Part shown: piece after piece, positions 31,702 to 56,849 of the stretch
Position numbering within the stretch: position 1 is the first letter of the stretch
How the letters are laid out: the number at the start of each line of letters is the position of its first letter
Assembly: GCA_963772365.1 (NCBI GenBank)
Contig: CAVYXA010000001.1
Location: forward strand, 448,001-512,000
DNA: 64,000 nucleotides
Direction of reading: 5' to 3'
From: an uncultured Verrucomicrobiae bacterium
Lineage (GTDB): Bacteria; Verrucomicrobiota; Verrucomicrobiia; Chthoniobacterales; UBA10450
Translations under genes and position numbers: made by a program
The notes under the pieces: model-generated
What the model was told of the DNA's origin: nothing
Seen by the model: the letters and a program-made list of their open reading frames with translations, nothing else
Database searches by the model: none

Positions 31702-34065
31702 TTACGGCACGGAGTGGCCGATATTGACCTTCACCTGAATGACATCGGTGGCATTGATGTCTCCACTGGCGTTGATGTCACTGCGGAAATTGCTCGAGTC
31801 GACCGCGACGCCCACCTGCGCCTTGGTCTGCGCTACATCTGAGGCGTTCACGGTTGCATTGGCGCTGCTGTCGCCGATTAGCATGACTGCATTCACCGCA
31901 GTATCTGGCAATGTTTGACCAAAACTGTCCATTACATTGCTCGCCGTCACGGTGATCTGTTGCTGGTCAGTCACTCCGGTCAGGTTCACCGTCATCGTGC
32001 TGCCGGAGAAGATCGGACTACCGGCGACAGTTCCTGTCCCGCTGGTAACAGCGGCGTTGCCGCTAACAACTGGGTTCGAGAAAGTGAAGACAAGTGTGTG
32101 ATTACCTCCGCTGCTGCGACATTCCACTCCAGGCGACCCGGAAAGCGGAAGATCGACATCGAATGTGCCCGCGGGGCCGTGCGTCTTGCGCGAGACGACA
32201 CTCGCCAGCTGCAGTGGATTACACGCCGCCGGTGCCATGATCGGCACAGTGATTGGGCTTCCGGTTTTAAGGAAGCCAACCGTCGCATCGGCATTCTGCG
32301 GTGGTTGATTGGAGTCAAAGCGGAAATTGTACAACGTGCCAAATCGGATCGCATTAGCGTTCGGACTTTGCGCTAACGTTTCACAGTTCCAGGTGAGTGC
32401 GTTAGGCGTTTGATTCGATGCCCAGGGAGCATTGCTGAATCCGGCATCTCCCGCTGTTCCGTCGTTGGGGAATCCGGGATGATTGGGCGGAGCGTGAAAT
32501 CCGACATTGCTTATTGTCGCTCCACAACCCAACGGCACACTGAACGATTGGATGGATCGGTCGAGATTCTGATTGTGAATAGCGTATTCGTAATGCCAGA
32601 CGCCAGATGACGGATTGCTGACTTTGTAAACAACGAATGCGCGGCCATCGACTCCGGGATCGGGTTCGATAACGGCGGTGAACGAACCGATCCACGCGTC
32701 GGTGGCAGGTTTCATCCGCACGGCTGGGCCAGCAGGAGTGAAGGTGAAAGTGGACGTGCCGCTGACGTTGTAAGGTCGATAGGACGCGTTGTTATACATG
32801 TTGCATTCGCCGGGGTGCGACTGGCACCAGGCGTACTCCTGAGGAGTATCGTATTGCGCTTCGGCATAGTAAGTAGCGCCTGTGTTCAAAGTTGTATTCA
32901 GATCGCTCATTGCGACCAAAACTCGATGAGATGTCCCGGTGTGAACGTGACCGCTATGATTCCTGGCATTAGAAGGAAAGATCCCGGTGAAAGGGTTTAC
33001 CCAAGCTCGTGAGCCGAGCAGACTCTGAGTCGCATTTTCGCTGGCACTGTAAGGATCCGAACAGCCGACGCCAAGCTTGGTGAAATCGGGGTAGGGTGTG
33101 CAGCCGTAGCTGCAGTCGTCAAATTGATCGGCCCCGAATGTGTGTTTCACCCAGGATTGACCGATTTGCTCAAATCGGTCGTTGTTGTTCGAGCCGCCGC
33201 TCATACGATAAATGTTTTGTGATACAACGGAGTGATCGGTATTTGGCAGCTGGAAAAAATCGACTGGCTGGTCACCGTTGTTGCAAGAAATTGTTCCAAT
33301 TCCCAAACCTACTTGTGTTCCAGCGCTTCCCGATTGGACGATTGCCGGCATATCTCCCACGACAATGTCCGGTCCGTGAACCGAGGCCGGAATACCTGGA
33401 ATCGGGCCGCTTCGTGCGGGTAATATCGACGATTTAATCGCACCATTAGCGACGGTAATGACAGCGATTGGGCTAAGGATGGCATTTACAGTGATATGCC
33501 CTGCAATCGTTCCAGCGGCTGCTGGTTGCCCAAGTGTCTGGGCAAGCTGTTGCGAAATGAGAAGTTTTCCAGGTGTGATGCTGAATGAACGGTCATCAGC
33601 GTTGTAAGAATAGCTTTGTCCGTCGATGTTAAACAGAATCAAACCAGTTTGGGCGTCGCGCAGAACCAGATCGAACTGATCTGCCGGAGGGACTCTGTCG
33701 ATGGTAAGTCGGTGAAGCGAACTGTTCAGTGGTTCCGGGATGTCTCGGGTGTTCTCCCAGACCAAAATTAGAGTGCCGGTCTCCGGGCCGCGGAGGATAT
33801 GATTGAAAACTCGAAGAGTGAAGAACGAGTTCGCGCCGATTCTGAAACGGAGATTCTCTAATTGCGATTGCTCAGGGTGGCCGGGCGCCAGCCGATTCCG
33901 ATCGAGATCCAGAAAGACGGTGCCGTTTGTGACGAGCATTCGTTCGAGAGTGCCCGTCTGCCCTTCCGTTTTTTGATGTTCCATCTCTACTCCGAAATTT
34001 TGTCTGCTGGCGGTCGACAACAATATTATCGAAAGCGCAATGCGAGTAAGGGTTGTCTGTCTCAT
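31702..34065 (-). CDS. Secreted Cys/His-rich protein (lysyl oxidase-like core inferred) + 'SRKTHG' Ig-like + dockerin-like domain, paralog 1
   Basis: Signal-like N-terminus; 'FEQIGQSWVKHTF..CSYGC..LGVGCSDPY'; C-terminal 'GDSSANATVNASD..SDINASGDINATD'. Confidence 0.8.
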   Translation of the reverse strand: MRQTTLTRIALSIILLSTASRQNFGVEMEHQKTEGQTGTLERMLVTNGTVFLDLDRNRLAPGHPEQSQLENLRFRIGANSFFTLRVFNHILRGPETGTLILVWENTRDIPEPLNSSLHRLTIDRVPPADQFDLVLRDAQTGLILFNIDGQSYSYNADDRSFSITPGKLLISQQLAQTLGQPAAAGTIAGHITVNAILSPIAVITVANGAIKSSILPARSGPIPGIPASVHGPDIVVGDMPAIVQSGSAGTQVGLGIGTISCNNGDQPVDFFQLPNTDHSVVSQNIYRMSGGSNNNDRFEQIGQSWVKHTFGADQFDDCSYGCTPYPDFTKLGVGCSDPYSASENATQSLLGSRAWVNPFTGIFPSNARNHSGHVHTGTSHRVLVAMSDLNTTLNTGATYYAEAQYDTPQEYAWCQSHPGECNMYNNASYRPYNVSGTSTFTFTPAGPAVRMKPATDAWIGSFTAVIEPDPGVDGRAFVVYKVSNPSSGVWHYEYAIHNQNLDRSIQSFSVPLGCGATISNVGFHAPPNHPGFPNDGTAGDAGFSNAPWASNQTPNALTWNCETLAQSPNANAIRFGTLYNFRFDSNQPPQNADATVGFLKTGSPITVPIMAPAACNPLQLASVVSRKTHGPAGTFDVDLPLSGSPGVECRSSGGNHTLVFTFSNPVVSGNAAVTSGTGTVAGSPIFSGSTMTVNLTGVTDQQQITVTASNVMDSFGQTLPDTAVNAVMLIGDSSANATVNASDVAQTKAQVGVAVDSSNFRSDINASGDINATDVIQVKVNIGHSVP

Positions 34066-34166
34066 TCTGTTCTCTTTCCTATGTTTTAAGTTGCGGCAAC
34101 GGTCCAAAGGTAAGGCCGTGAATTGTTTACCAGGGCTAATTGGAAAAGAGGAGTTTTTTTTCACGC

Positions 34167-34203
34167 AAAAAAAAGCGGAGCGCTTTCACAAGCGCCCCGC
34201 TTC
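34167..34203 (-). terminator. Intrinsic terminator after paralog 2
   Basis: Minus strand GCGGGGCGCT-TGTGAA-AGCGCTCCGC followed by T8. Confidence 0.75.
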
Positions 34204-34251
34204 GCGACAGCCGTTCTTTTGGCGTGCCTGAACCAGATAGATCAAATGCAG

Positions 34252-36591
34252 TTATGGCACAGAATGACCGATGTTGACTTTTACCTGAGTGACATCGGTG
34301 GAATTGATATCTCCGCTGACGTTGATGTCGTTGCGGAAATTGCTCGAAGAAACCGCGGCGCCCACCTGCCCTTTTGTCTGGGCTACGTCTGTTGAATTGA
34401 CACTTTGATTGGCGCTGGTATCAGCGATCAGCATGACTGCGTTCACCGCGGTATCGGGCAATGTTTGACCAAATGTATCCATGACGTTGCTGGCTGTGAC
34501 TGTGATCTCTTGCTGGTCAGTAACCCCTGTCAGATTCACCGTCATCGTGTTGCCGGAAATAACGGGACTACCCGAGACGGTCCCCGTGCCAGCAGTGACG
34601 CTGGCGTCGCCACTGACGATCGGGTTACTGAAAGTGAACACAAGGGTGTGATTGCCACTGCTGCTGCGGCATTCCACTCCGGTTGATCCGGACAGCGGAA
34701 GATCGACATCGAACACGCCCGCAGCGCCGTGGGTCTTGCGCGAAACCACACTGGCCAGTTGCAATGGGTTGCATGCCAGCGGCGCCATGATTGGCACAGT
34801 AATTGGATCTCCATTCTTGAAGAAACCGATGGTCGCATTGGCCTCGTGTGGTGGTTGATCGGAGTCAAACCGGAAGTTGTAGAGTGTGCCCCAGCGGATT
34901 GCATTGGCATTTTGGTTTTGGGCAAATGTTTCGCAACTCCAGGTTACATCACTCGACGTCTGGGCAGGCGTCCATGGCGTACTGCTAAATCCCGCATTGT
35001 TTTGGGTTCCATCGTTTGTCCAGCCGGGGTGCTGTGGCGGAGCATGAAAGCCGAGATTGCTCACTGCGGCGCAAACCGTCGGCACGCTGAAGGACTGGAT
35101 CGCGCGATCGAGATTCTCGTTGTAAAGGGCATACTCGTAATGCCAGGTGCCAGCGGACGGATTGCTCACCTTGTAGGCAAGCATGCCGATTCCGTCATTA
35201 CCAGGGTCCGGCTCGAACGTATTAAAGTTCGCACCGGTCCAGGCGTTAATACCAGGACGCTGCCGCACCGTCGCGGCTACGGGATTAAACGTGAAGAACG
35301 TAGTTCCCACCGGGGTAAACTGCCGATAAGAAACGTTGTTATACATATTGCATTGGCCGGGATGGGCCTGACACCATGCGAATTCGTGTGGGGTGACGTA
35401 CTGACCTTCGGCAAAGTAGGTTGCGCCCGGATTCTGCGCGGGATCCAGATCGGAGATGGCAACAATCACCCGGTGCGATAAGCCGTTATGTGAGTGACCG
35501 GAATGGTTTGCCGGGCTGGGCGAACCTGGGAATGCACCGGTAAATGGATTGACCCACGCGCGAGAGCCAAGACCGCCCTGGCTGTAATTCAGACTCGCCA
35601 CATACGGATCGGAGCAGCCGGAACCGAGATGAGTTCCGCCCACACCGTTGCATCCGTAGCCGCAGACGTTTTGCGTGAGAGCGGTAAACGCGTGCTTGAG
35701 CCACGATTCACCGATCTGCTCAAAGCGCTCTGTGTTATCCGCCCCGCCGCTCATTCGATAAAGGTTTTGCGGAATCACCGGGTGATCATTGTTTGGCAAT
35801 TGGAACCAATCCAAATTCTCCGTCCCCGCATTACACGAAGTCGTGCCCACCCCCAATCCAACGAAACTGCCGACAGTTCCGTTGCTAGGCTCTTCGACCC
35901 CAGAAATATCCCCGACGATCACATCCGGCCCTGGAACATTACCGACCGCAGGCTGGCGCAAGGCCGGCATTCGTGCTGACTGCACGACGCCGTTCACGAC
36001 GCGATCAACTTCAATCGGATACACAGTTGCTCTAATCGAAATGTTACCCGCAACTGCGCCAGCAACAGAAGCGCGACCCAGCTGTTGAGCAAGCTCATGC
36101 GAAACCACGAGTCGGCCACCGGTAATGCTAAGCAGGTGTTGACCGGCATCGTATTTATAGTCGTGTCCCTCGATATTAAACAGCGTCGAACCATTTCGGC
36201 TATCGCGAATGGCAAGATCGAAATCATCGGATGGACCCATCTTCTGAATCGCCAGATGACTGAATGAGTCGGCCAAGGCTGTGGGAAGTGCCTTGGAATT
36301 TTGCGGCGTCAGGTTCATTGCACTCGGCTCCGGGCCGCGCAATTGATTGTTGGTGACCAGCAGAGTGAAGAATGAATCAGGCGAGACGGTAAAGCCCACG
36401 GCTTTGGTCGAAACGCCGAGCGCCTTTGAATCGAGATGCATTTCCACGGTTCCATTGCCGACGATCATTCGCTCGATGGTGACGGTTCCGTTGCCGGTTT
36501 TCTGGTTTGATTCAGCTTTTGAAGCCTCCGTGCTGTTACAGAAAAGCAGCAGCAGTGGAAGTGTGAAGTAGGTGGACAGTTTCTTTGACAT
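34252..36591 (-). CDS. Secreted LOX-like core + 'SRKTHG'/dockerin protein, paralog 2
   Basis: Signal peptide MSKKLSTYFTLPLLLLFC; 'SWLKHAF..CGYGC..LGSGCSDPY'; RBS (GGAGG) upstream. Confidence 0.85.
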   Translation of the reverse strand: MSKKLSTYFTLPLLLLFCNSTEASKAESNQKTGNGTVTIERMIVGNGTVEMHLDSKALGVSTKAVGFTVSPDSFFTLLVTNNQLRGPEPSAMNLTPQNSKALPTALADSFSHLAIQKMGPSDDFDLAIRDSRNGSTLFNIEGHDYKYDAGQHLLSITGGRLVVSHELAQQLGRASVAGAVAGNISIRATVYPIEVDRVVNGVVQSARMPALRQPAVGNVPGPDVIVGDISGVEEPSNGTVGSFVGLGVGTTSCNAGTENLDWFQLPNNDHPVIPQNLYRMSGGADNTERFEQIGESWLKHAFTALTQNVCGYGCNGVGGTHLGSGCSDPYVASLNYSQGGLGSRAWVNPFTGAFPGSPSPANHSGHSHNGLSHRVIVAISDLDPAQNPGATYFAEGQYVTPHEFAWCQAHPGQCNMYNNVSYRQFTPVGTTFFTFNPVAATVRQRPGINAWTGANFNTFEPDPGNDGIGMLAYKVSNPSAGTWHYEYALYNENLDRAIQSFSVPTVCAAVSNLGFHAPPQHPGWTNDGTQNNAGFSSTPWTPAQTSSDVTWSCETFAQNQNANAIRWGTLYNFRFDSDQPPHEANATIGFFKNGDPITVPIMAPLACNPLQLASVVSRKTHGAAGVFDVDLPLSGSTGVECRSSSGNHTLVFTFSNPIVSGDASVTAGTGTVSGSPVISGNTMTVNLTGVTDQQEITVTASNVMDTFGQTLPDTAVNAVMLIADTSANQSVNSTDVAQTKGQVGAAVSSSNFRNDINVSGDINSTDVTQVKVNIGHSVP

Positions 36592-36827
36592 TGTGATTTT
36601 GGTTCCTCCGAGTTTTTTAGCCTCAGCCCAAGGACGCCTTGCGTTGAGACCGAGGATTTATAAACACATTTTGTAAAAAAAGAGAGCTTTTTTTGGAATT
36701 ATTTTGGCCTGCAAGTTCAAACATTGAGGCTTCGGGGTCGAAATCCTCAGTGCGCGAAGCGACCGCCGCCGCACCAATAAAGCGGGGACAACGTTGGCCG
36801 TTTTTTAAATCGTGCGTCGGGAAGCGG

Positions 36828-39210
36828 TCACGGGACAAAGTGACCGATACTCACTTTCACCTGCGTGACATCGGTGGAATTGATATCTCCGCTGGTATTG
36901 ATGTCATTGCGGAAATTGCTCGAGTCGACCCCGGCGCCTACCTGACCTTTCACTTGCGCTACGTCTGAAGAATTGACTGTTCGATTGGCGCTGGTGTCCC
37001 CGATCAACATCACTGCATTCACAGTTGTGTTAGCCAGAGTTTGACCAAATGCGTCCATCACATTGCTGACCGTCACCGCGATCTGTTGCTGATCGATGAC
37101 GCCGGTCAGGTTCACCGTCATTGTGTTGCCAGAAAAAACCGGACTGCCTGAAAGGTTGCCGATGCCGCTGGTCACGGCGGCATTGCCACTCACGACGGGA
37201 TTGCTGAAAGTGAAGACGAAACTGTGATTGCCGCTGCTGCTGCGACATTCCACGCCCGTCGATCCAGATAGCGGAAGATCGACATCGAATGAACCAGCCG
37301 CGCCATGCGTCTTTCGCGAAACTACGCTGGTCAATTCCAGCGGATTACACGGATCATCCGGTGTCGGCACTTGCACCTGGACCATGATGTGCGAACCGGT
37401 TTTGAAAAAACCAATCGTCGCGTTCGCACTCGTGGGCGGCTTATTGCAATCAAACCGGAAATTGTACATCGTCCCGAAACGAATCGCATTCGCGTTCGGG
37501 TTCTGCGCGATTGTCTCGGTGCTCCAGGTTAGTGCTCCGCCTGCCTGGCTCGGTAGCCAGGGGAAGCTGCTATACCCCTGGTTGTTGAATGTTCCATCAT
37601 TTGCAAAGCCGGGATGCTGAGGCGGACAGTGAAACGCCACATTGCTCAGCGTCACACCGCAGCCTAACGGGATGCTCAAGGACTGGATCGCTCGATCTAG
37701 ATTTTCGTTATAGACCACATACTCGTAATGCCATGTTCCAGCCGAAGGATTACTCACTTTGAAGCCGACCACTCCGATCCCATCCGCGCCCGGCGCCGGT
37801 TCGAAAGTCCGCAATGTCGCTCCCGTCCAGGCTGCGATTGCGGGCTGCTCTCGCACGGTGGGACCGGCATTCGTAAAACTGAATGGCTGGTTGATCCCAA
37901 CTACATTATAACGGCGGTACGAAACATTGTCTGTACATATTGCACTGGCCGGGATGCGACTGGCACCAGGTGTATTCATGTGGAACGACGTATTGCGCTT
38001 CAGCGAAATATGTCGCTCCGGGATTCATCGACGCGTTCAAGTCGTTAACGTCAACCAGAATCCGGTGAGACGTGACGTCATGAACATGACCGCTGTGGTT
38101 GTTCGCTGTCGATCCGTTGAAATTGCCCGTGAACGGATTCACCCAGGCGCGTGACCCGATACCGGTTTGGCTGCCGTTCAAACCGCTGCCGTAGGCATCC
38201 GAGCAGCCGGAGCCAAGCTGACCGCCGCCCACGCCGTTGCATCCAAAACCGCATGTGTTTGAAGATGCTGCAGCAAATGCATGCTTGCCCCACGATTGGC
38301 CGATTTGCTCGAACTGCTGAGTGTTATCTGCGCCGCCACTCATTCGATAAAGATTCTGTGGAATAAAAGGATGGTCGTTGTTTGGCAGGGCGAACCAATC
38401 CGCATTCTCGGTTCCTTTGTTGCAGGCGTCGGTTCCCAGAGCGAGTCCGACACGACCGCCGACGGAACCCGTCTCAGATTGGTCCAACCCAATCAGCTCG
38501 CCAACGATGACGTCCGGACCGGGGACAGTGCCGACCGCAGGGTCATTCACCGGTGGCAGCGTAGCGGATTCCAGATGGCCATTCTCGTCAAGCTGCGCGA
38601 TCTCTGTGGTGTGCATGGTTCCGCTGACGGAGATCGTTCCAACTACCGTACCGGCATCCGCCGAACTGCCCAATTCGTCAGCAAATTGTGGCGAAAGCAG
38701 AAGCGTCGCACCACTGATGGTGAACAACTTTGCGTTGGCATCATAATCGTAATGCCCTCCTTCAATGGAAAAAAAGACGATTCCCGTTCCGCCATCGCGC
38801 ACTGTGAAATTTAACGATTCACTTGAATCAAGTTTTTCAATCATCAGATGGCTGAATGATTCGCTCAACAGAGAGGGAAAGCCTCGAAGGTTTCGTGATT
38901 GGGGGATGAGCGTCATCGAGCCGGGCTCAACACCGCGTAACAGGTCGTTAAAAACGAAAATTGGGAAGAAAGAATTGGCTCCTACTGCGAATCGCAGTGA
39001 TACGGTTCTCGGCGGGATCAAGCTAGATCCATTGAGCCGGTTCAAATCAAGTTCCATCGCAACGCTTCCGGTCGCGACGATCATTTTCTGCAATGTGCCG
39101 GATTTGCTATTCGCAGCTTTAGGTTCGGGACCTGCGACAGAGGTTGCCGAGCTATTGCAGAACAGCAAAACCAGTGGGAGCGCGAGATAAGTGAGCAGTT
39201 TGTTCGACAT
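36828..39210 (-). CDS. Secreted LOX-like core + 'SRKTHG'/dockerin protein, paralog 3 (frameshift near 37930)
   Basis: ORFs 37906-39210 and 36828-37979 join at 'CNMY/NVSYR', collinear with paralogs 1 and 2. Confidence 0.82.
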
Positions 39211-42294: not shown

Positions 42295-44166
42295 TTAGGG
42301 CAGTCCGTGGCCCCCATTGGCTTTAACCATGGAACTGTCGGTGGCGTTGATCGTGCCGTTGACATTCACGTCCGACCGAAAATTCGTGGTATCCAGCGTT
42401 TGACCAATTCGAGCTTTGGTCTGGCTGACGTCGCTCGCGTTTACCGCGCCATTTCCATTTGTATCGCCCAGTAGAATACTGACGTTCACTGTCGTGTCGG
42501 GCAAAACCCGAGAAGCGGAATCTGTGACATTGCTAAGCAGCAGCGTAACCGTCTGCGCATCCGTCACCCCGGTTAAGTTTACCGTCATCGTCTGACCCTG
42601 GTAAGCGGGAGGGCCGGAGATAGTGGCCGTTCCACTCGTTACGCTCACATTGCCGCTCACGACATCACTATTAAAGGTAAAGACGAGCGTATGATTGCCT
42701 CCGCTGCTCCGGCATTCCACCCCAGGCTGACCGCTGAGCGGCAGGTTAATGTCGAACGTGCCTGCGCTGCCGTGCGTTTTTCGCGAGGCCGCAGCTGTAA
42801 GTTGGAAGCCGTCGAGGTATCGCGCCAGCGCGAAATCGCTGTTCTGATAATACTGATCGCTGGAGGTATAACCACCCGCGACGAGTTTGCCATCGGGTTG
42901 AAATGCAAGGGCCACGCCTGTGGTCGACTGGCCGAAGGATGTCGTGACTATACCACCGTTGCCAAAAGTCGAATCGAGGGAGCCGTTTATGTCGAAGCGC
43001 AACAAGTGAAATGCAGAGTCCGATGTAAAATTGCCACTTCCGAGAGCGATTAGCTTGCCATCGCTTTGAAGCGCTACCGCATTGAGACCCCCTTGGTCCT
43101 GCATGAGCACCTTTCCGCCGTTGCCGAAGCTCTGATCGAACGAACCGTCTGGATTGAACCGCGCCAGGGCGAAACTATCGTAGGGGCTATTAACCTCGGC
43201 CCATCCTACCAGAACGATTTTGCCGTCAGTTTGAAGGACGGCATCGTTGGCAGCGTCCCAGTTACTACTAAAATTGGCTAACGCATGGCCGTCGCCCGAA
43301 AATGTTGTGTCGAGCGTGCCGTTGGGGTTATAACGGGCGACCAGGAATTGGTAGGTGGACCCACCGGCGATAACGAGTTTGCCATCCGGTTGGATCATTA
43401 GCGCAACGGCGTAACTCTCCGTGCCTTGCCCGAAATCATTGGTCACTATGCCGCCGTTGCCAAAGGTCGTGTCAAGCGAGCCATCGGGATTGTACCGAGC
43501 CAGGGCCACATTCCCTTTTCTCTGGTCGGCTGGATAAAAAAAGATGCCTTTGCGTCCAGCGGCTACTATTTTCCCATCAGACTGAAGCGCGAGCGCATAG
43601 GCCTGGTCATCGTCGGGCCCGACATTGGTTGTTACTATTCCACCGTTGCCGAAAGTGGGATCGACCGACCCGTTCGAGTTGAAGCGTAGCAGAACAAATG
43701 AACTATCACTTTGGGAAGGCAGATCGATGCTTCCACTGATCATAATCTTGCCATCCGGCAGAATGAGCAACCCAGCTGCGCTTTCCCGGACCGAGGCCAC
43801 GGTTATCACTTTGCCGCCATTGCCAAATGTCGGGTCGAGTGTGCCATCCGGATTGTAGCGAGCAAGCGCGCCCTTGTGGCTCGGGTGGGTATCACCAATG
43901 GCGATGATTTTGCCGTCGGGCTGGACCGCAATGCGGTTCAAATAGTCAACGCTATTGTTAAAGTCGGTCACGACCTTGCCACCGTTGCCAAATGTCGGGT
44001 CAAGTTCGCCATCCGTCGCTCGCGCAGTGTGTTCGCTGGTGAAAAACGCCACCATCATTGTCGCTGCGAAAACAAAGCCGCGCCAAATTGCTTTCCAGTT
44101 TTTTGTGGAAAGGAATTGTGCGGACTGTTGCCTGATTTCAATTTTGGTAAAAAATAACATGGTCAT
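42295..44166 (-). CDS. Secreted delta-60 repeat beta-propeller + 'SRKTHG'/dockerin module
   Basis: Seven 'DG.LD.TFG.GG' units with 'QPDGKI'; C-terminal 'ASRKTHGSAGTFDINLPL..GDTNGNGAVNASD..SDVNVNGTINATD'. Confidence 0.88.
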   Translation of the reverse strand: MTMLFFTKIEIRQQSAQFLSTKNWKAIWRGFVFAATMMVAFFTSEHTARATDGELDPTFGNGGKVVTDFNNSVDYLNRIAVQPDGKIIAIGDTHPSHKGALARYNPDGTLDPTFGNGGKVITVASVRESAAGLLILPDGKIMISGSIDLPSQSDSSFVLLRFNSNGSVDPTFGNGGIVTTNVGPDDDQAYALALQSDGKIVAAGRKGIFFYPADQRKGNVALARYNPDGSLDTTFGNGGIVTNDFGQGTESYAVALMIQPDGKLVIAGGSTYQFLVARYNPNGTLDTTFSGDGHALANFSSNWDAANDAVLQTDGKIVLVGWAEVNSPYDSFALARFNPDGSFDQSFGNGGKVLMQDQGGLNAVALQSDGKLIALGSGNFTSDSAFHLLRFDINGSLDSTFGNGGIVTTSFGQSTTGVALAFQPDGKLVAGGYTSSDQYYQNSDFALARYLDGFQLTAAASRKTHGSAGTFDINLPLSGQPGVECRSSGGNHTLVFTFNSDVVSGNVSVTSGTATISGPPAYQGQTMTVNLTGVTDAQTVTLLLSNVTDSASRVLPDTTVNVSILLGDTNGNGAVNASDVSQTKARIGQTLDTTNFRSDVNVNGTINATDSSMVKANGGHGLP

Positions 44167-48875: not shown

Positions 48876-49622
48876 ATGTTAAAGCTGAAAAAACTCCGGC
48901 TTGATCAGTTGCTGGTGACCAAAGGCCTCTTTCCCAGCCGGGAAAAAGCCCAGCGCGCTGTCATGGCCGGGGAAATCAAGATCGGAACGCAGGTCGCGGC
49001 CAAGCCATCCCAGCTTGTCCAACCGGATGTGGAGATCAGCGTGAAATCGCCGGAAAAATTTGTCGGTCGCGGCGGCCTGAAATTGGAAGGGGCGCTCAAT
49101 GATTTCAAGATCGACGTCGAGAACAAGATCGCCCTCGACATCGGCGCTTCGACAGGCGGATTCACCGATTGTCTGCTCCAGAGGGGCGCGGCCAGGGTTT
49201 ACGCCGTCGATGTTGGCCACGGTCAATTGGATTGGAAAATTCGGAACGATCCGCTTGTGATCGTGCTGGAAAAGCTGAATGGGCGGTTTCTGTCCCGTGA
49301 GCAGATTCCTGAGTCTGTCGATCTTTGCGTGATCGATGTCTCATTTATCTCGCTGACTTTGATCTTGCCCAATGCCTTTGAGTTGCTAACTGCAAATGGC
49401 GTGATCCTGGCTTTGATCAAGCCACAGTTCGAGCTCCAGGCGGCCGATGTCGGAAGCGGGGGAATCGTTCGTAAACCGGAGTTGCATCGAAAGGCACAAG
49501 ACAAGATCGTTCAGTTCGTGACTCAGCTCGGCCATAGCGTTTCCGAAATTGTTCCTTCCAGCATCACTGGCGCCGACGGCAATCAGGAATTTTTTGCATG
49601 CATACGAAAACGATCGGCCTGA
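48876..49622 (+). CDS. tlyA: TlyA family rRNA methyltransferase
   Basis: S4 'RLDQLLV', 'RGGLKL', 'LDIGASTGGFTD', 'DVSFISL', 'LIKPQFE'. Confidence 0.93.
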   Translation: MLKLKKLRLDQLLVTKGLFPSREKAQRAVMAGEIKIGTQVAAKPSQLVQPDVEISVKSPEKFVGRGGLKLEGALNDFKIDVENKIALDIGASTGGFTDCLLQRGAARVYAVDVGHGQLDWKIRNDPLVIVLEKLNGRFLSREQIPESVDLCVIDVSFISLTLILPNAFELLTANGVILALIKPQFELQAADVGSGGIVRKPELHRKAQDKIVQFVTQLGHSVSEIVPSSITGADGNQEFFACIRKRSA

Positions 49623-50464
49623 TTGCGCATACCGGAAAACCCGGCGTGGCCGATCTGGTCAACGCCGTGGCGGACGAGTTTCGCCGGTATTCGATGTCGA
49701 TCCTGCTGGAAAAGGAAACGGCCGCGATTGCCGGGAAAAAATCAGACAGCACCATAGCGCAGCTTGGCGCCGCCACGGATCTCTTAGTGGTCGTCGGCGG
49801 AGACGGGACCATCCTGCGCGTGGTTGGACAACTGGGTGAGGCGATCAAGCCGGTCTTCGGGATCAATGTGGGATCGCTCGGCTTTTTGACCTGCGCAAAT
49901 TCCAGCGCTTATCGCGAAGCGGTCGAATGCATCGCGAAAGACCGCATCAACTTCAGTCAAAGGACGCTGTTGGAAGCACGGGTCACGTTAGGCGAAAAAC
50001 GCACCGGGAAAATGATCGCCCTCAACGACGCAGTCCTGAGCCGGGGCGAGCTTTCCCGGTTGGTCTTATTGCAAGCACGAGTGAACGGCGAAGTGCTCAC
50101 GGAATTTAATGCCGATGGATTAGTCGTGGCCACGCCGACCGGGTCGACCGCCTATTCGCTCTCGGCGGGCGGGCCGATTCTCGACCCGGAATCGGGCGTC
50201 CTCGTGATTACCCCGATTTGTCCGCACGTCCTGACCAATCGGTCCATCATTGTGGCCTCAACCTCGGTCATCGAAATTGAAGCGAGCGATCCTGAGTATC
50301 CGGTCTTTCTCACGCTCGACGGCCGGCCACCAATTCACATCGAGCGAGGATCTACAATCACCATCCGCAAAGCGAAAAAGACTCTGCCTTTGGCCGCGTT
50401 GCCCGATGTCTCATTCTTCAGCGTGGTGCGACAAAAGCTGAAATGGAGCGGCAGCAACGTCTAA
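49598..50464 (+). CDS. nadK: NAD kinase
   Basis: 'VGGDGTIL', 'GINVGSLGFL', 'DGLVVATPTGSTAYSLSAGGP'. Confidence 0.95.
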   Translation: MHTKTIGLIAHTGKPGVADLVNAVADEFRRYSMSILLEKETAAIAGKKSDSTIAQLGAATDLLVVVGGDGTILRVVGQLGEAIKPVFGINVGSLGFLTCANSSAYREAVECIAKDRINFSQRTLLEARVTLGEKRTGKMIALNDAVLSRGELSRLVLLQARVNGEVLTEFNADGLVVATPTGSTAYSLSAGGPILDPESGVLVITPICPHVLTNRSIIVASTSVIEIEASDPEYPVFLTLDGRPPIHIERGSTITIRKAKKTLPLAALPDVSFFSVVRQKLKWSGSNV

Positions 50465-52583: not shown

Positions 52584-52798
52584 TTACCTCCTGCTCGCGG
52601 TGTTGGGTTTTATTGGAGGACTCATCGGCGGGCCTTTGCGGGTCGTAGTCTATGTCGGAACGCAATCAGCGGTCGACTTCCTAAAAGCGACGATGGAAAA
52701 GGCTCAACTCCGAATTAGGAGCAGACTAGAAAAACCATACCCAACCAACCCCAACGCCTAGCGATTGGTGCTGGTAGGGTTTGATTATGGAAATTCTA

Positions 52799-53371
52799 TT
52801 ATTCCGATCTAGCTCGATGAAGCCAGCGCGCGGTTCCGTCAGCTTGGTAAGCCAAGGTGAATCGAAAACCTTGCATCTTTTTCGTCCTGATGAATGTCGA
52901 ATAGTAGACGTTTACATTAATATCTCCCAGTCTGTACTGCATCTCGTTTCGGTAAAAAGGCATCCGGACTGTCACTGTGGCTGTTTCCTTTGCGTCCAAA
53001 TTCGGTATTTCCGGTGCCGAATCGTCAAACTGCATTCCCTCGATTCTGCCGCCGTAAATATTTTCAACTTTGCTGACACCGACCATTCGACGTACGTGAT
53101 AAATTGGCAGCCACCCTTCGTTTGTAATCTTGAAGATCGCGGGGAACGGATGTTGAGGATCGAGCGGCCTCTCGATCTCTACGGAAACACTTGATTGAAA
53201 TGAAAAGTAGGTCGTCGCGATTGTCATCAAAGCCAATAGCCAAAAGATTGGGCCGACAGGAGAAAATATCAGACCAAATAATCTTCTTACTTTGTTCCTT
53301 CGGTTTCGCTGCCGCTGTTTTTGCCATTTCAGTCTTCGTAGGTCTCTTGCTCGCTTGCCTCTTTTAGACAT
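52799..53371 (-). CDS. Passenger: basic N-terminus, one TM helix, small beta-rich domain
   Basis: 190-aa ORF ending just inside the left TIR. Confidence 0.6.
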   Translation of the reverse strand: MSKRGKRARDLRRLKWQKQRQRNRRNKVRRLFGLIFSPVGPIFWLLALMTIATTYFSFQSSVSVEIERPLDPQHPFPAIFKITNEGWLPIYHVRRMVGVSKVENIYGGRIEGMQFDDSAPEIPNLDAKETATVTVRMPFYRNEMQYRLGDINVNVYYSTFIRTKKMQGFRFTLAYQADGTARWLHRARSE

Positions 53372-53388
53372 TGACTGTATTAAGCTTT

Positions 53389-53577
53389 GTGCCTAAACGC
53401 GACACAAGCCAAGAAGCCTTGCGGCAAGTCGAGCAGATCACCGGCAGCAAGCCGGTCCGAGGAGAAACCTTGCTCCGGTCGCGGAAGTTAAAGCAACAGC
53501 TTAGAGAAGCTAGAAAGCGCGAAAAAGACCGTCATGTAAAGGCTAGCAGGCCGCCGAAGACAAGACGCTCGGACTAA
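53389..53577 (+). CDS. Passenger: small basic protein
   Basis: GTG start, 'PKRDTSQEALRQVEQITG' followed by a Lys/Arg-rich tail. Confidence 0.5.
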   Translation: MPKRDTSQEALRQVEQITGSKPVRGETLLRSRKLKQQLREARKREKDRHVKASRPPKTRRSD

Positions 53578-53624
53578 TTCTTTGTCCTTGCATTTGTATT
53601 GCATCTGCTCCAAGGTTCCTGACT

Positions 53625-54041
53625 ATGACCGGGGATGACATTCGGAGCATCGAAGAACGCGAGGCGCTTCTTGATAAAGAAATTACTGAAAGGCAGAAGC
53701 TAAAAGACGCCTATCGCCTTGTTCGAGAGGACTTGGCGCGGAGCCACGGACAAAACGGAAGCGCCAGCCAGGATGATGCGGTTGGGCTATGGCCGGAGCT
53801 ATCTGGGCAGGGCGACAAGGAGTACGGGCGCAATACGAAGCTCGTGCGACTGGCTATCTCCAAAATGACAGACGATTACCACATTCGTGATATTTATGCG
53901 TTTCTGCGCGGTCACGGTTACCAGATCGGAATGAGCGCGATCGGAATAGTTCTCAATCGCTTGAAGAAAACCGGCGAAATCAAAGAGCGTGTGCCGGGAA
54001 GCGGGCGCAGACCGGCTTTGTACAGAAAACGAAGATTATGA
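53625..54041 (+). CDS. Passenger: coiled-coil + winged-helix DNA-binding-like protein
   Basis: 'YHIRDIYAFLRGHGYQIGMSAIGIVLNRLKKTGEIKER..GRRPALY'. Confidence 0.65.
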   Translation: MTGDDIRSIEEREALLDKEITERQKLKDAYRLVREDLARSHGQNGSASQDDAVGLWPELSGQGDKEYGRNTKLVRLAISKMTDDYHIRDIYAFLRGHGYQIGMSAIGIVLNRLKKTGEIKERVPGSGRRPALYRKRRL

Positions 54042-54160
54042 AGTTAGACCGACAGCGCAAGGCGACATCAGCCCGGTCGTAACCTAGCGCAATGATACAA
54101 AAGGCACCGGGCCGCGTGGTTGAATCCTACTAAGACTGCCACGCGGCCCGGAAGGGCAAT

Positions 54161-54230
54161 GGGGATACCGGGTAGGCGGGCACGCCCTATAAGCAACGCC
54201 CGGTGGGTTCAACTCCCACTATCTCCACCA
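54161..54230 (+). ncRNA. tRNA-like RNA (70 nt) with Ala-type acceptor stem, canonical T-arm and encoded CCA, lacking a normal anticodon arm
   Basis: GGGGATA pairs with TATCTCC (G3-U70); T-arm GTGGG-TTCAACT-CCCAC; ends ACCA. Confidence 0.6.
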
Positions 54231-54240
54231 CTTTCTTGTA

Positions 54241-54417
54241 TTACGGAATATCACGAGTTGACCGTTCTATCAAGCAATTTCTGGCCCACTCTCTAACCTT
54301 CTGGCCAGCGCGTTTGGCAGCGCGAGTCATTGCGGTGAGTTCATCCTGAGAGAAACGCAGAGAGAAAACGCTTTTCGTCTTTCGCTTTGGCAATTTAGGT
54401 CTTCCCCGTTTTGGCAT
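54241..54417 (-). CDS. Small AT-hook + ribbon-helix-helix regulator (58 aa, below the ORF-track cutoff)
   Basis: Hand translation MPKRGRPKLPKRKTKSVFSLRFSQDELTAMTRAAKRAGQKVREWARNCLIERSTRDIP*. Confidence 0.7.
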   Translation of the reverse strand: MPKRGRPKLPKRKTKSVFSLRFSQDELTAMTRAAKRAGQKVREWARNCLIERSTRDIP

Positions 54418-54423
54418 AATTAT

Positions 54424-54476
54424 TTTTCGTAATACGAAAATTAGTGTTGACGGTAGTTTAATTTTTGTATTACATT
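54424..54476 (+). promoter_or_regulatory. Transposase promoter with operator-like repeats
   Basis: TTGACG (54447-54452), 18-bp spacer, TACATT (54471-54476); palindrome TTTTCGTA-A-TACGAAAA at 54424-54440. Confidence 0.55.
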
Positions 54477-54496
54477 AAATCAAGCTAAAAATTTGT

Positions 54497-55423
54497 ATGA
54501 ATAAACGATTGAGCAAAGAACGGCAGTCTTTAGTTTTGGCGGCGCTCTGTGAAGGAGCACCAATCAACGCAGTTTGCCGGATGTTCCGCGCTGATAAAGC
54601 GGCGGTGCTGCGCATCGTTCGTGAGACCGGCGAAGCATTTATCGACTACATGGACAAAGAATTTCGCGACTTGCCGTGTGTTCGCATCGAAATGGACGAG
54701 CAATGGCAGTATGTTGGCTGTCACGCGGGCCGGATGCCAAAGCCGACGACCGTTTATGGGAAGCGCGACAATACGCGCGGCGACTTTTGGTTGTGGGCCT
54801 GCATCGACGCGGACACGAAGTTGATTTTCTCGCATCGTGTCGGCAAGCGTGATCGCTGGACAGGCCGCGAGTTTGTTGCTGATGTGCGCCAGCGCGTGAA
54901 AGGGCCGGTGCAGATCGCCACAGATAATTTCAAGCAATACCCGTGGCACATCCGCGAGGCTTTCGGTTACGAGGGTTTCAGCTACGGAATGGAAACAAAG
55001 GTATTCGGCGAGCCGGAAATGCTTGACGGCACGCTGGCGCGTCTTGGAAAGAACGAGGGCGTTCGCAAGATGATGACAGCGGAGCGGAAAGCACTAGTAG
55101 GCTCGCCGGACTTAGGCAGCCTCACCACTTCGCACATTGAGCGGGCTTTCTTGACCGTTCGCCAAGAATTGAAGCGATTCCAGCGCAAGGGGCTTGGCTA
55201 CAGCAAAACAGTCGAAATGCACAAGGCGGCGGTCGCAATGTTCCTTGGCGTTTACAATTTCGTCCGTCGTCACGAGACACTGAAAACAACGCCAGCGGTC
55301 GCAGCAGGCGTGGAATTGAAAGCGTGGCGTTTAGAAGACGTGGTTGAAATGAAAGACGCCTACGTGCGCCGGACAGAGGACGCGAAATTTGAAGCAGCAT
55401 TCGCCAAGCTTGAAAAACCATAA
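54497..55423 (+). CDS. IS1-like DDE transposase with N-terminal HTH
   Basis: 'LCEGAPINAVCR', 'IEMDEQWQYVG', 'WLWACIDADTKLI', 'QIATDN', 'TSHIER', 'YNFVRRHETL.TTPAVAAGV'. Confidence 0.9.
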   Translation: MNKRLSKERQSLVLAALCEGAPINAVCRMFRADKAAVLRIVRETGEAFIDYMDKEFRDLPCVRIEMDEQWQYVGCHAGRMPKPTTVYGKRDNTRGDFWLWACIDADTKLIFSHRVGKRDRWTGREFVADVRQRVKGPVQIATDNFKQYPWHIREAFGYEGFSYGMETKVFGEPEMLDGTLARLGKNEGVRKMMTAERKALVGSPDLGSLTTSHIERAFLTVRQELKRFQRKGLGYSKTVEMHKAAVAMFLGVYNFVRRHETLKTTPAVAAGVELKAWRLEDVVEMKDAYVRRTEDAKFEAAFAKLEKP

Positions 55424-55446
55424 CCAAAGCCTACCAACACCTAGCG

Positions 55447-55474
55447 ATTTTATATGACATATATTGTCTGATGT
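55447..55474 (-). other. dif/xrs-like XerCD site (degenerate)
   Basis: Minus strand ACATCAGACAA-TATATG-TCATATAAAAT; 11-6-11 layout, 20/28 to the B. subtilis dif recalled as ACTTCCTAGAA-TATATA-TTATGTAAACT. Confidence 0.45.
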
Positions 55475-55553: not shown

Positions 55554-56513
55554 CTACGTTTGCAATGGCGGAGGTTCGGGCGGCGGCGAAGTCGTAGGCG
55601 GCGCTGGCGGCGAAATTCCCTGCCAGACATCGTAATCGGGGCCGAATTGGCGGAGAAACATCAGTGTGAATCCGTAAAGAGTGACCGGAATCGGCAAGAG
55701 AATCACCGTGCCGATGTATGGAATCGCCGCAATGCAGCAGGTCACACAAACCACGGCGCAACCAACGATGGCCGCACAAATCGCGATCAGGATAAAAAAC
55801 AGCAGGAAAAGAAGAATTGGCCCAGGATGCGCGTTGATCAGCCCAATGCTTTCCACAAACGCCTGACGCGCCCGGCAACGCTGGCGATACATGATCGGCA
55901 CCATGAAATGCGAGATGACGGTCCACGCGATGGAAATCGCCACGACAAAAAGGAGGAAGAACCCAAGCGCGATCCAAAACCAGAAGGTCGGTTTTGGATG
56001 AGGGCCGTGGAGAACCAAAGGCGCGATGACCGGCAGAATGGCGAGGATGACGAGGGTGAAGATCGCCAGAGCAATCACGAGCGAAAACAGAAAAAAACTG
56101 TTCCCCTCTGTCCGGAATTCGTTCCATGGCCCGACGATCGCGCCGCGGTTATGCATGATGCAATCGGTGAACATGAAGCGGCCACGCGCGCCGATCCATT
56201 TGAGAACAATGACGATCGCAAGAAGAATCAAAGCGCCGATAACGATCAACGCGATGATCGGCCAATCCACATTTCCGATCGGTCCGATCTCATGAAATTT
56301 CCTTGCGATCTCGCGCCGGTCGTCACGCGAGGACCAGGCCGAGAAGGGATTCCCGTGAATTCCAAAGCCGCCGGCAAAATTCGCTAGGAAAGCGGCGAAA
56401 CCGATGACGAACCATTTCTTAATGTCGAATGGTTGAAAAAGGATTTTCTTCATCAGGTCGAAGGCTTCGCCGAAAGGCTTGAAGATCTCGATTCTGGGTT
56501 CAGGGCCGTTCAT
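55554..56513 (-). CDS. Multi-pass membrane protein with Pro-rich tail
   Basis: 'KILFQPFDIKKWFVIGFAAFLA', several TM helices, 'VCVTCCIAAIPYIG'. Confidence 0.75.
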   Translation of the reverse strand: MNGPEPRIEIFKPFGEAFDLMKKILFQPFDIKKWFVIGFAAFLANFAGGFGIHGNPFSAWSSRDDRREIARKFHEIGPIGNVDWPIIALIVIGALILLAIVIVLKWIGARGRFMFTDCIMHNRGAIVGPWNEFRTEGNSFFLFSLVIALAIFTLVILAILPVIAPLVLHGPHPKPTFWFWIALGFFLLFVVAISIAWTVISHFMVPIMYRQRCRARQAFVESIGLINAHPGPILLFLLFFILIAICAAIVGCAVVCVTCCIAAIPYIGTVILLPIPVTLYGFTLMFLRQFGPDYDVWQGISPPAPPTTSPPPEPPPLQT

Positions 56514-56849
56514 GCGTGCGATTCCAATCCGTCTCGTTAAGAGAAGCAAGCTTTCCGCGCGCTGGAGGGATGCGCTTCCGCGCGTCCGGGACATGCGGAA
56601 GCATGTCTCTCCGAAGTCTTCAGTCTTTTATTCGCCTGATTTGCGTGATCCGCGGGCTCAATCAGTTCCGAAATAACGATCGCCGGCATCCCCAGCCCGG
56701 GCACGATATAGCCGGAGCGATTCAGTTGTCGCGAGAGCGCAAGATCGACAATTTGGCCGCCACCAGCGAATGCTCGACGACTGTAACCGCTGAGTTTCGT
56801 TCCACCGCTGTTGGGTTTACCGTAAGAGAACGCAAAACACAGGGAAAAG

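Follow-up and report, generated by a model that had tools for sequence, protein, structure and literature searches.

An IS1-family transposon that ends beside an 11-6-11 sequence resembling a XerC/XerD recombination site, at a position that seems to have been hit more than once, raises the question of whether the Xer site itself determines where the transposon inserts. The window, i.e. the whole stretch of 64,000 nucleotides that was analysed, corresponds to 448-512 kb of a 1.8-Mb contig in a genome of 3.35 Mb. The initial annotation of the locus described the 11-6-11 sequence as dif-like, with its XerD-like arm facing the element, and proposed that Xer-site-guided targeting explained repeated insertion at exactly this position.

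Structure of the transposon and its surroundings

The transposon was found at 52767-55441 and has a size of 2,675 bp, with 24-bp inverted repeats and a perfect 8-bp target-site duplication, TAGCGATT. Its extent was deduced from the fact that both inverted-repeat ends carry the same 8-mer, TAGCGATT, on the outside, at 52759-52766 and at 55442-55449. The tips of the inverted repeats (IRL and IRR) are GGTGCTG and GGTGTTG. The features of the locus are listed here by position in the window.

49598..50464, + strand: NAD kinase gene (nadK), conserved neighbour on the XerD side; Pfam NAD_kinase_C 108 bits, NAD_kinase 54.7 bits
52731..52758, + strand: older element-end remnant, IRR-like, AAAAACCATACCCAACCAACCCCAACGCC; best end-motif matrix hit in the genome (29.5), followed by TAGCGATT
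52759..52766: left target-site duplication TAGCGATT, identical to 55442-55449
52767..52790, + strand: IRL GGTGCTGGTAGGGTTTGATTATGG; 21/24 matching with the reverse complement of IRR, aligned to the upstream DNA; second-best matrix hit genome-wide
52799..53371, - strand: cargo ORF of 190 aa, from the ORF list; no match in Pfam or NCBIfam
53371..53577, + strand: small ORF of 68 aa, which accompanies the transposase in relatives
53625..54041, + strand: cargo ORF of 138 aa, without a family match
54161..54230, + strand: candidate tRNA-like RNA gene of 70 nt with an encoded 3' CCA, part of the cargo; Rfam tmRNA model
54241..54417, - strand: ribbon-helix-helix (RHH) protein of 58 aa, divergent from the transposase; Pfam NikA-like 27.5 bits, cut-off 27
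54497..55423, + strand: IS1-family DDE transposase of 308 aa, intact, with its stop codon within IRR; Pfam DDE_Tnp_IS1
55418..55441, + strand: IRR CCATAACCAAAGCCTACCAACACC, from the inverted-repeat alignment and the end-motif matrix
55442..55449: right target-site duplication TAGCGATT; its last 3 bp (ATT) are the first 3 of the XerD arm
55447..55474, - strand: most likely the chromosomal dif; XerD arm 55447-55457, centre 55458-55463, XerC arm 55464-55474, the C-to-D reading being on the minus strand
55554..56594, - strand: DUF7544 membrane-protein gene, conserved neighbour on the XerC side; Pfam DUF7544 102.7 bits

The right duplication does run into the 11-6-11 sequence, as the initial annotation had it: TAGCGATT at 55442-55449 overlaps the arm of the site (55447-55474) by 3 bp (ATT). 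Repeated insertion at the position is likewise borne out by the older end remnant at 52731-52758, which is followed by the left copy of TAGCGATT. Two other candidates were discarded in delimiting the element. A weak inverted repeat at 54443, considered as the left end, is instead the -35 promoter region (TTGAC) conserved in relatives, and a ACCTAGCG repeat at 54082 was rejected as the duplication, the true left end being 52767.

An nhmmer profile of the 35-nt end missed even known copies, and a position weight matrix was used instead, built from ends in other genomes with the right end of the window left out. When both strands of the whole genome were scanned (6.7 million positions), the top three end hits all fell at the dif locus. 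The transposase DNA is single-copy in this genome.

As to the genes carried, the 190-aa ORF was found in none of the other fetched loci, while the 68-aa ORF adjoins dif or the transposase in 12 other loci (40-62% identity, tblastn); in L003, L005 and L006 its position is upstream of the RHH gene. The tRNA-like candidate scored 29.6 bits with the Rfam tmRNA model (E 1.5e-9), as a tRNA would and below the gathering score of 47, and was not called by ARAGORN; its predicted fold comprises an acceptor stem (7 bp), one long arm and a T arm (-27.1 kcal/mol). A perfect 13-bp hairpin (54107-54119 / 54139-54151) precedes it inside the transposon, and CCA is encoded neither in the true tmRNA of the genome nor in the two tRNA-like genes that were printed. 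In relatives, a small minus-strand gene occupies the position of the RHH gene and a TTGAC promoter box is common to them; the RHH protein is most likely a regulator of the divergent promoter rather than a targeting factor. Three GTATTAC/GTAATAC boxes (54233-54251, 54422-54443 and 54459-54480) surround the divergent RHH/transposase promoter and are plausible candidate operators for this protein.

Elsewhere in the window, a unit of ~2.55 kb is present in three tandem copies at 31702-38973 (66-81% identity; repeat families D1-D4 and D8), probably three paralogous genes in a row, and a 51-nt motif occurs seven times at 42939-44015, spaced by 162-189 nt, in a gene for a repeat-domain protein.

Assignment of the transposase

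The transposase matched Pfam DDE_Tnp_IS1 (PF03400) with 48.2 bits (cut-off 24.1), and the same family was matched by all 22 aligned sequences, i.e. the window protein and 21 relatives. No match to IS1595 occurred among these 22, and resolvase-type helix-turn-helix hits were obtained for nine of them. With the NCBIfam model transpos_IS1 (NF033558) the score was 66.4 bits against a cut-off of 100, so that the IS1 equivalog model was not passed. Members of the IS1 family have GGnnnTG end tips and duplicate 8-9 bp of the target, and the GGTGCTG/GGTGTTG tips and perfect 8-bp duplication seen here display both traits. Judged by its protein sequence, the transposase clade is a divergent branch of IS1.

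The same genome also carries, outside the window and away from dif, a member of a second IS1-like group with about 35% identity (G000:C1:1019863-1020678). This group is mostly not at dif, the exceptions being L025 and L071 (G054 and G070), where it ends 150-160 nt from dif.

Identification of the 28-mer as the probable dif

The sequence at the site is TAGCG-ATTTTATATGA-CATATA-TTGTCTGATGT, in which ATTTTATATGA is the element-side arm. Even when 8/28 mismatches are allowed, the 3.35-Mb genome contains no other copy of the 28-mer. In a survey of 121 genomes of the same family with a 27-nt degenerate pattern and up to 2 mismatches, the pattern was present in 94 (76 of the 82 high-quality ones), occurring once per genome in 90 of the 94 and in two or three copies in G075, G088, G094 and G114; the reversed control pattern was found in none of the 121. 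The genomes counted include three flagged as unpublished.

Cumulative GC skew along the 1.8-Mb contig culminates at 500-520 kb, and dif, at 503,447, is no more than about 14 kb from this global maximum. Over 50-400 kb the curve climbs on the left-hand side of dif, with slopes of +0.009 to +0.016, and declines on the right-hand side, with slopes of -0.011 to -0.014. In the closed chromosome of a relative (G145, 4.02 Mb) the dif motif occurs once, at 2,357,226. Its GC skew, sampled in 40 stretches of 20 kb, stays positive as far as 2.30 Mb and is negative in the samples taken from 2.40 Mb onwards, with dif in between at 2.357 Mb. The skew minimum of this chromosome is roughly opposite dif, and dnaA, at 3.68 Mb, is not opposite dif (1.32 versus 2.70 Mb).

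The arms were assigned by comparison with the dif sites of three Verrucomicrobia given in the available part of Kono et al. 2011 (PMC3025954, supplement file 2), which are predictions and not experimentally proven sites. The reverse complement of the 28-mer agrees with the predicted Methylacidiphilum dif at 23 of 28 positions (C arm 8/11, centre 6/6, D arm 9/11) and the forward strand at only 15 of 28; agreement with the predicted Akkermansia dif is 20/28. As it is the reverse complement and not the forward strand that matches the Methylacidiphilum prediction, the arm ATTTTATATGA beside the element was taken as the XerD arm, which upholds the orientation read by the initial annotation.

The genome encodes XerD (TIGR02225, 331.2 bits, cut-off 329.6) and a second Xer-type gene with XerC as its best match (301, below the cut-off of 335); among 41 genomes of the family, XerD was identified in 39. 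A search for skewed 8-mers of the FtsK-guide kind converging on dif gave nothing significant: polar 8-mers picked at 100-450 kb from dif had a best z of at most 4.4, and in the nearest 100 kb on each side the same 8-mers pointed 89 times towards dif and 100 times away. In all likelihood the 11-6-11 sequence (55447-55474) is the host's own chromosomal dif. The dif architecture described in the initial annotation is retained, and the label dif-like is too weak for a single-copy sequence at the skew peak.

A fixed insertion position beside dif

The flanks of dif were compared at 98 distinct sites from the genome itself and from family loci, of which one was too near a contig end, leaving 97 evaluable; the family dif sites of G010, G084 and G065 are absent from this set. 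At 56 of the 97 sites the element end CAACACC (at most 1 mismatch) precedes TTYATATGA with exactly 7 nt in between, which places the end 5 nt outside the 11-bp XerD arm, and any other offset within 60 nt occurred no more than three times. On the XerC side of the 97 sites there was no enrichment of the end motif on either strand. Counted per genome, dif is occupied in 52 of 90, and counted by genus in 23 of 29, with 11 genera holding both occupied and empty sites. The flanks of homologues therefore bear out the proposal that insertion is positioned relative to the Xer site.

The consensus of the 56 ends reaches about 30 nt inward (aatt.CCATAC.cAA...cCAACACC), and the 39 sites without an end motif have nothing in common leftward beyond the last few spacer bases. 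Forty-nine different 8-mers adjoin the 56 occupied sites; the duplicated bases vary freely save for a weak CGAT preference, which is also seen at empty sites. When the left flanks were scanned with the matrix, nine loci proved to have a complete pair of element ends and an 8/8 identical duplication:

L001: duplication TAGCGATT, 8/8 identical
L005: duplication GACGCATT, 8/8 identical
L051: duplication AGTCTATT, 8/8 identical
L067: duplication TCTCGATT, 8/8 identical; 34-bp element
L068: duplication TCACGACT, 8/8 identical; 34-bp element
L074: duplication ACCGTATT, 8/8 identical
L079: duplication CAACCACT, 8/8 identical
L106: duplication TAGCGACT, 8/8 identical
L115: duplication ATTGTATT, 8/8 identical

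Each of these duplications copies the spacer of its own genome, and the nine are separate events. Further 8/8 duplications were found in loci reached from the transposase (L134, L142, L146 and L158), which may partly cover the same genomes as the nine loci reached from dif. The 34-bp elements of L067 and L068 consist of two ends only, with duplications, and L060 is alike by eye. Stacks occur in six of the nine loci, an older end and the same 8-mer standing just before the new left end. Since related genomes are not independent, weight is placed on the distinct duplications and not on the counts; nearly all genomes are metagenome bins, in which repeats near dif could be misassembled.

In one genome, G075, dif-like sites were found on three contigs, one on each, and all three have an element end at the standard distance. 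In its locus L097 / L156 the left end is preceded by the 8-mer AGTAGAGG and the right end is followed by the reverse complement of this 8-mer, CCTCTACT, as would result from inversion of a segment between element copies.

Search starting from the transposase

The converse search, in which one genome per species was scanned for the transposase, gave 32 loci with relatives at 49-78% identity, all from metagenome bins labelled Chthoniobacterales, Spartobacteria or Verrucomicrobiota. A dif motif was present within 4 kb of the transposase in 23 of the 32, always with its XerD side towards it, so that this reverse test also agrees with a reference to the Xer site. The transposase reads towards dif in 13 of the 23 and away from it in 10, and either element end can therefore face dif. 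Two of the other nine, L135 and L145, abut a site that has the XerD arm and centre with a foreign other arm. Stops or frameshifts were detected by a crude test in 10 of the 32 transposase genes.

Of the nine remaining relatives, four are cut off by contig ends. Three others, L147 (1772-4962), L161 (2214-4919) and L155, which is the same as L008 (G043:C6), are complete elements with 8-bp duplications (CTTCTTTA, GACCAGCG and CATTTTCC, respectively) in targets that do not resemble dif. Targeting is thus not absolute, three of the 32 relatives being complete at non-dif sites. L155 adjoins an array of TTCCCCAG..CTGGGAA-like palindromes.

A junction pattern made of the element end and the XerD half was searched for in 201 genomes, 200 across the order and the genome of the window, and was found in 10 of 21 genomes of this family, in 2 of 22 of one other family and in 0 of 157 of the remainder, where the dif of other families may differ. 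In G016 (C2:64277-64308) and G034 (C16:15563-15594) junctions of an end with a XerD arm were seen whose far side departs from dif, the former lying 3.9 kb from the true dif of that genome.

Gene order and accumulation between nadK and dif

The XerC-side flanks, with the DUF7544 gene, cross-match among many family genomes at similar offsets, and the XerD side is variable. The genome of the same genus, G001, has only 46 bp of DNA in common with the 18 kb around the site and gives no direct alignment to an empty site, for which reason nadK orthologues were compared to define the empty state. In L077 (G112), which has no element end at dif, about 70 nt at most separate dif from the nadK orthologue (64.5% aa identity), while the distance is 0.17-2.9 kb in seven occupied loci and about 4.98 kb in the window. 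As nadK is near dif where no element end is present, about 5 kb appear to have accumulated in the window. The intact element makes up the youngest 2.7 kb of this DNA, and the other 2.3 kb contain a methyltransferase gene, a gene for a VPDSG-CTERM protein, a 141-aa ORF and weak end remnants. Homing to dif would explain such a growing stack of foreign genes in the nadK-dif spacer.

Alternative explanations

Integrative mobile elements exploiting Xer (IMEX), such as CTX-phi, TLC and the gonococcal island, integrate through Xer strand exchange within dif and form tandem arrays there, and the present elements could have entered in this way with the transposase as mere cargo. They pile up beside dif as IMEX arrays do, and in L105, L056 and L090 unrelated segments of ~1.3 kb are flanked by a hybrid site on one side and a full dif on the other, which is the IMEX signature and indicates that Xer-mediated integration has probably taken place at the dif of these relatives. 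The hybrid sites, composed of the XerD arm, CATATA and a foreign arm, are about 1357 nt (L105), 1324 nt (L056) and 1287 nt (L090) left of dif, and an old transposon end stands 5 nt outside each; Xer-type integration could have split a dif that was already occupied. The window element, however, has neither the two dif-like flanks nor the central junction of an IMEX: it is bounded by the 24-bp inverted repeats and the 8-bp direct duplication, no second dif-like sequence occurs in its genome at up to 8/28 mismatches, and its junction falls 5 bp beyond the arm, away from the central region in which Xer strand exchange occurs. The 34-bp mini-elements made of two ends, with their duplications, fit transposition only, and entry of the element through Xer recombination is regarded as very improbable. 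It was also considered that the 28-mer belongs to the mobile element, as its outer end or its own resolution site, and not to the host. In several distant relatives it directly follows the transposase gene, in one case at 42-44% protein identity. Against this, the 28-mer is outside the inverted repeats and beyond the duplication, it occurs once per genome and at the skew switch in two genomes, and at 39 of the 97 sites it is present without an element end and with host genes (nadK) adjoining, which makes ownership by the element the least probable of these explanations.

The pattern at dif might alternatively require no targeting. If one ancient insertion had been inherited vertically, the element end would be a matter of conserved synteny, and the occupied genomes do all come from a single order, most of them from a single family, and kin are not independent. 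Vertical descent is nevertheless highly unlikely, as the nine loci with flanking duplications each duplicate a different local 8-mer, 49 distinct 8-mers were seen at 56 sites with 11 genera in both states, the stacks in six loci imply that the same base was hit twice or more in succession, and elements occur in both orientations and in sizes from 34 bp to 3.7 kb. Random insertion followed by selection, which would spare only the copies in the gene-poor spacer at the terminus, agrees with the fact that the spot disrupts no gene and that three relatives are located elsewhere. Selection would not go as far as single-base precision (56 ends at one offset, at most three at any other) and one-sidedness, and the end motif was found nowhere else in the genome of the window; this explanation, too, has very little probability. 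It is very likely, instead, that this group of transposons aims at dif.

Proposed mechanism of target choice

The explanation favoured, with high confidence, is that the 28-mer, which has every computable hallmark of dif, serves as the reference for an IS1-family element placed 5 bp outside its XerD arm, the transposase being predicted to recognise the XerD half. The DDE transposase would choose the spot via this half, either through bound XerD or through the DNA, and insertion itself would be ordinary cut-or-copy DDE transposition with an 8-bp staggered cut of the target. The target signal would thus reside in dif and not in the duplicated bases. Since the last 3 bp of the duplication belong to the XerD arm, dif is intact after insertion. 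Each new element would enter between the previous one and dif, so that elements and their cargo would become stacked in the interval from nadK to dif, and the older end remnant in the window would have been displaced from dif by a later insertion.

Contact with arm-bound XerD and direct readout of the DNA appear about equally probable as the way in which the target is read. XerD is a candidate guide by analogy with the contact to XerC that Harmer, Pong & Hall 2023 proposed, in the available text of PMC10132070, for IS1202-family elements, and the N-terminal helix-turn-helix of the transposase could read the arm directly. Half-sites next to element ends in which the XerD arm is paired with a foreign arm (L135, L141/L145, L105 and L056) were considered as proof that the XerD half suffices and were rejected as such, because later Xer-type integration into dif gives the same picture. 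A broader picture is put forward tentatively, as somewhat less likely than not: in the IS1 clade of the Chthoniobacterales, dif-bound XerD would act as a landing beacon for base-exact insertion outside the arm, with stacked cargo and the terminus as a platform for gene capture.

Comparison with known systems

With the IS1 family, i.e. IS1 of E. coli and single-ORF elements of the ISMhu11 type, the present clade has in common the DDE_Tnp_IS1 domain, the GGnnnTG tips, the 8-9 bp duplication and an N-terminal helix-turn-helix. Classical IS1 has only a loose AT-rich insertion preference, whereas the present clade is site-specific. It also differs from classical IS1 in having one ORF in place of the InsA/InsB' frameshift pair, in the additional small companion genes (RHH and the 68-aa ORF) and in its NCBIfam IS1 score below the cut-off.

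Tn7, through TnsD at attTn7, and the 'res hunters' Tn5053/Tn402 land at a fixed place beside a conserved protein-bound site, in a chromosome or a plasmid, that is left intact, and the res hunters require a resolution site bound by its recombinase. Fixed landing beside an intact conserved site is thus common to these elements and the present clade. Tn7 and Tn5053/Tn402 use dedicated targeting proteins, TnsD/TniQ with TnsC/TniB, and Pfam and NCBIfam profile searches detected no genes of the TnsD/TniQ or TnsC/TniB type here. Tandem build-up at dif is seen with IMEX as well, which are flanked by dif-like sites, in contrast to the inverted repeats and duplication found here.

Were its targeting to hold as proposed, the clade would offer a compact, single-protein system in which to ask how a site bound by a recombinase is recognised by a DDE transposase, with dozens of natural insertion events available for comparison. 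Homing to Xer sites looks like a recurrent strategy, such a site being a safe harbour in every chromosome.

The closest parallel is the ISAjo2/ISAba32 subgroup of the IS1202 family, called 'dif site hunters', which according to the available text of PMC10132070 inserts 5 bp from the XerC arm, including that of chromosomal dif. For the IS1202 subgroup the same text gives a TnsB-like transposase of 441-457 aa, TGT/ACA ends, a 5-bp duplication and a fixed orientation, and dif targeting by the family also appears in the part available of a preprint by Siguier et al. 2022 (10.1101/2022.12.17.520857). The text available of PMC11014353 deals with the Xer system carried by Tn6022 and not with targeting. 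In a literature search with most subscription journals outside it, dif targeting was found only for the IS1202 family and none for IS1-type elements, in accordance with the initial annotation, which had named some of the former as known cases and knew no report on the latter. For homing to dif, only this one other, unrelated family was thus found in print, as far as the sources were available. Its Xer-site elements have been studied, in the accessible literature, for moving resistance modules among Acinetobacter plasmids.

As far as ISAjo2/ISAba32 are described in the available sources, they resemble the present clade in the fixed distance of 5 bp from the outer edge of a Xer site that remains intact, and for both guidance by a bound recombinase is only a proposal. 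The transposase here is of the IS1 type with 308 aa as opposed to a TnsB-like protein of 441-457 aa, the ends are GGTG... as opposed to TGT/ACA, and the duplication is 8 bp with an overlap of 3 bp with the arm, whereas that of ISAjo2/ISAba32 is 5 bp and abuts it. The side is that of XerD here and of XerC there, either end faces dif here whereas ISAjo2/ISAba32 have a single orientation, and the hosts are soil Verrucomicrobiota chromosomes as opposed to Acinetobacter plasmids. Cargo and stacks are common in the present clade, unlike in ISAjo2/ISAba32. By these traits, within what the sources available describe, the clade works in a similar manner and is not a member of the IS1202 subgroup. A much smaller enzyme of the IS1 type, unrelated to theirs, would then reach a target of this kind on its XerD side across a family of uncultured soil bacteria and, if this is true, would represent a second, independent invention of Xer-site homing that uses the opposite recombinase from the IS1202 family.
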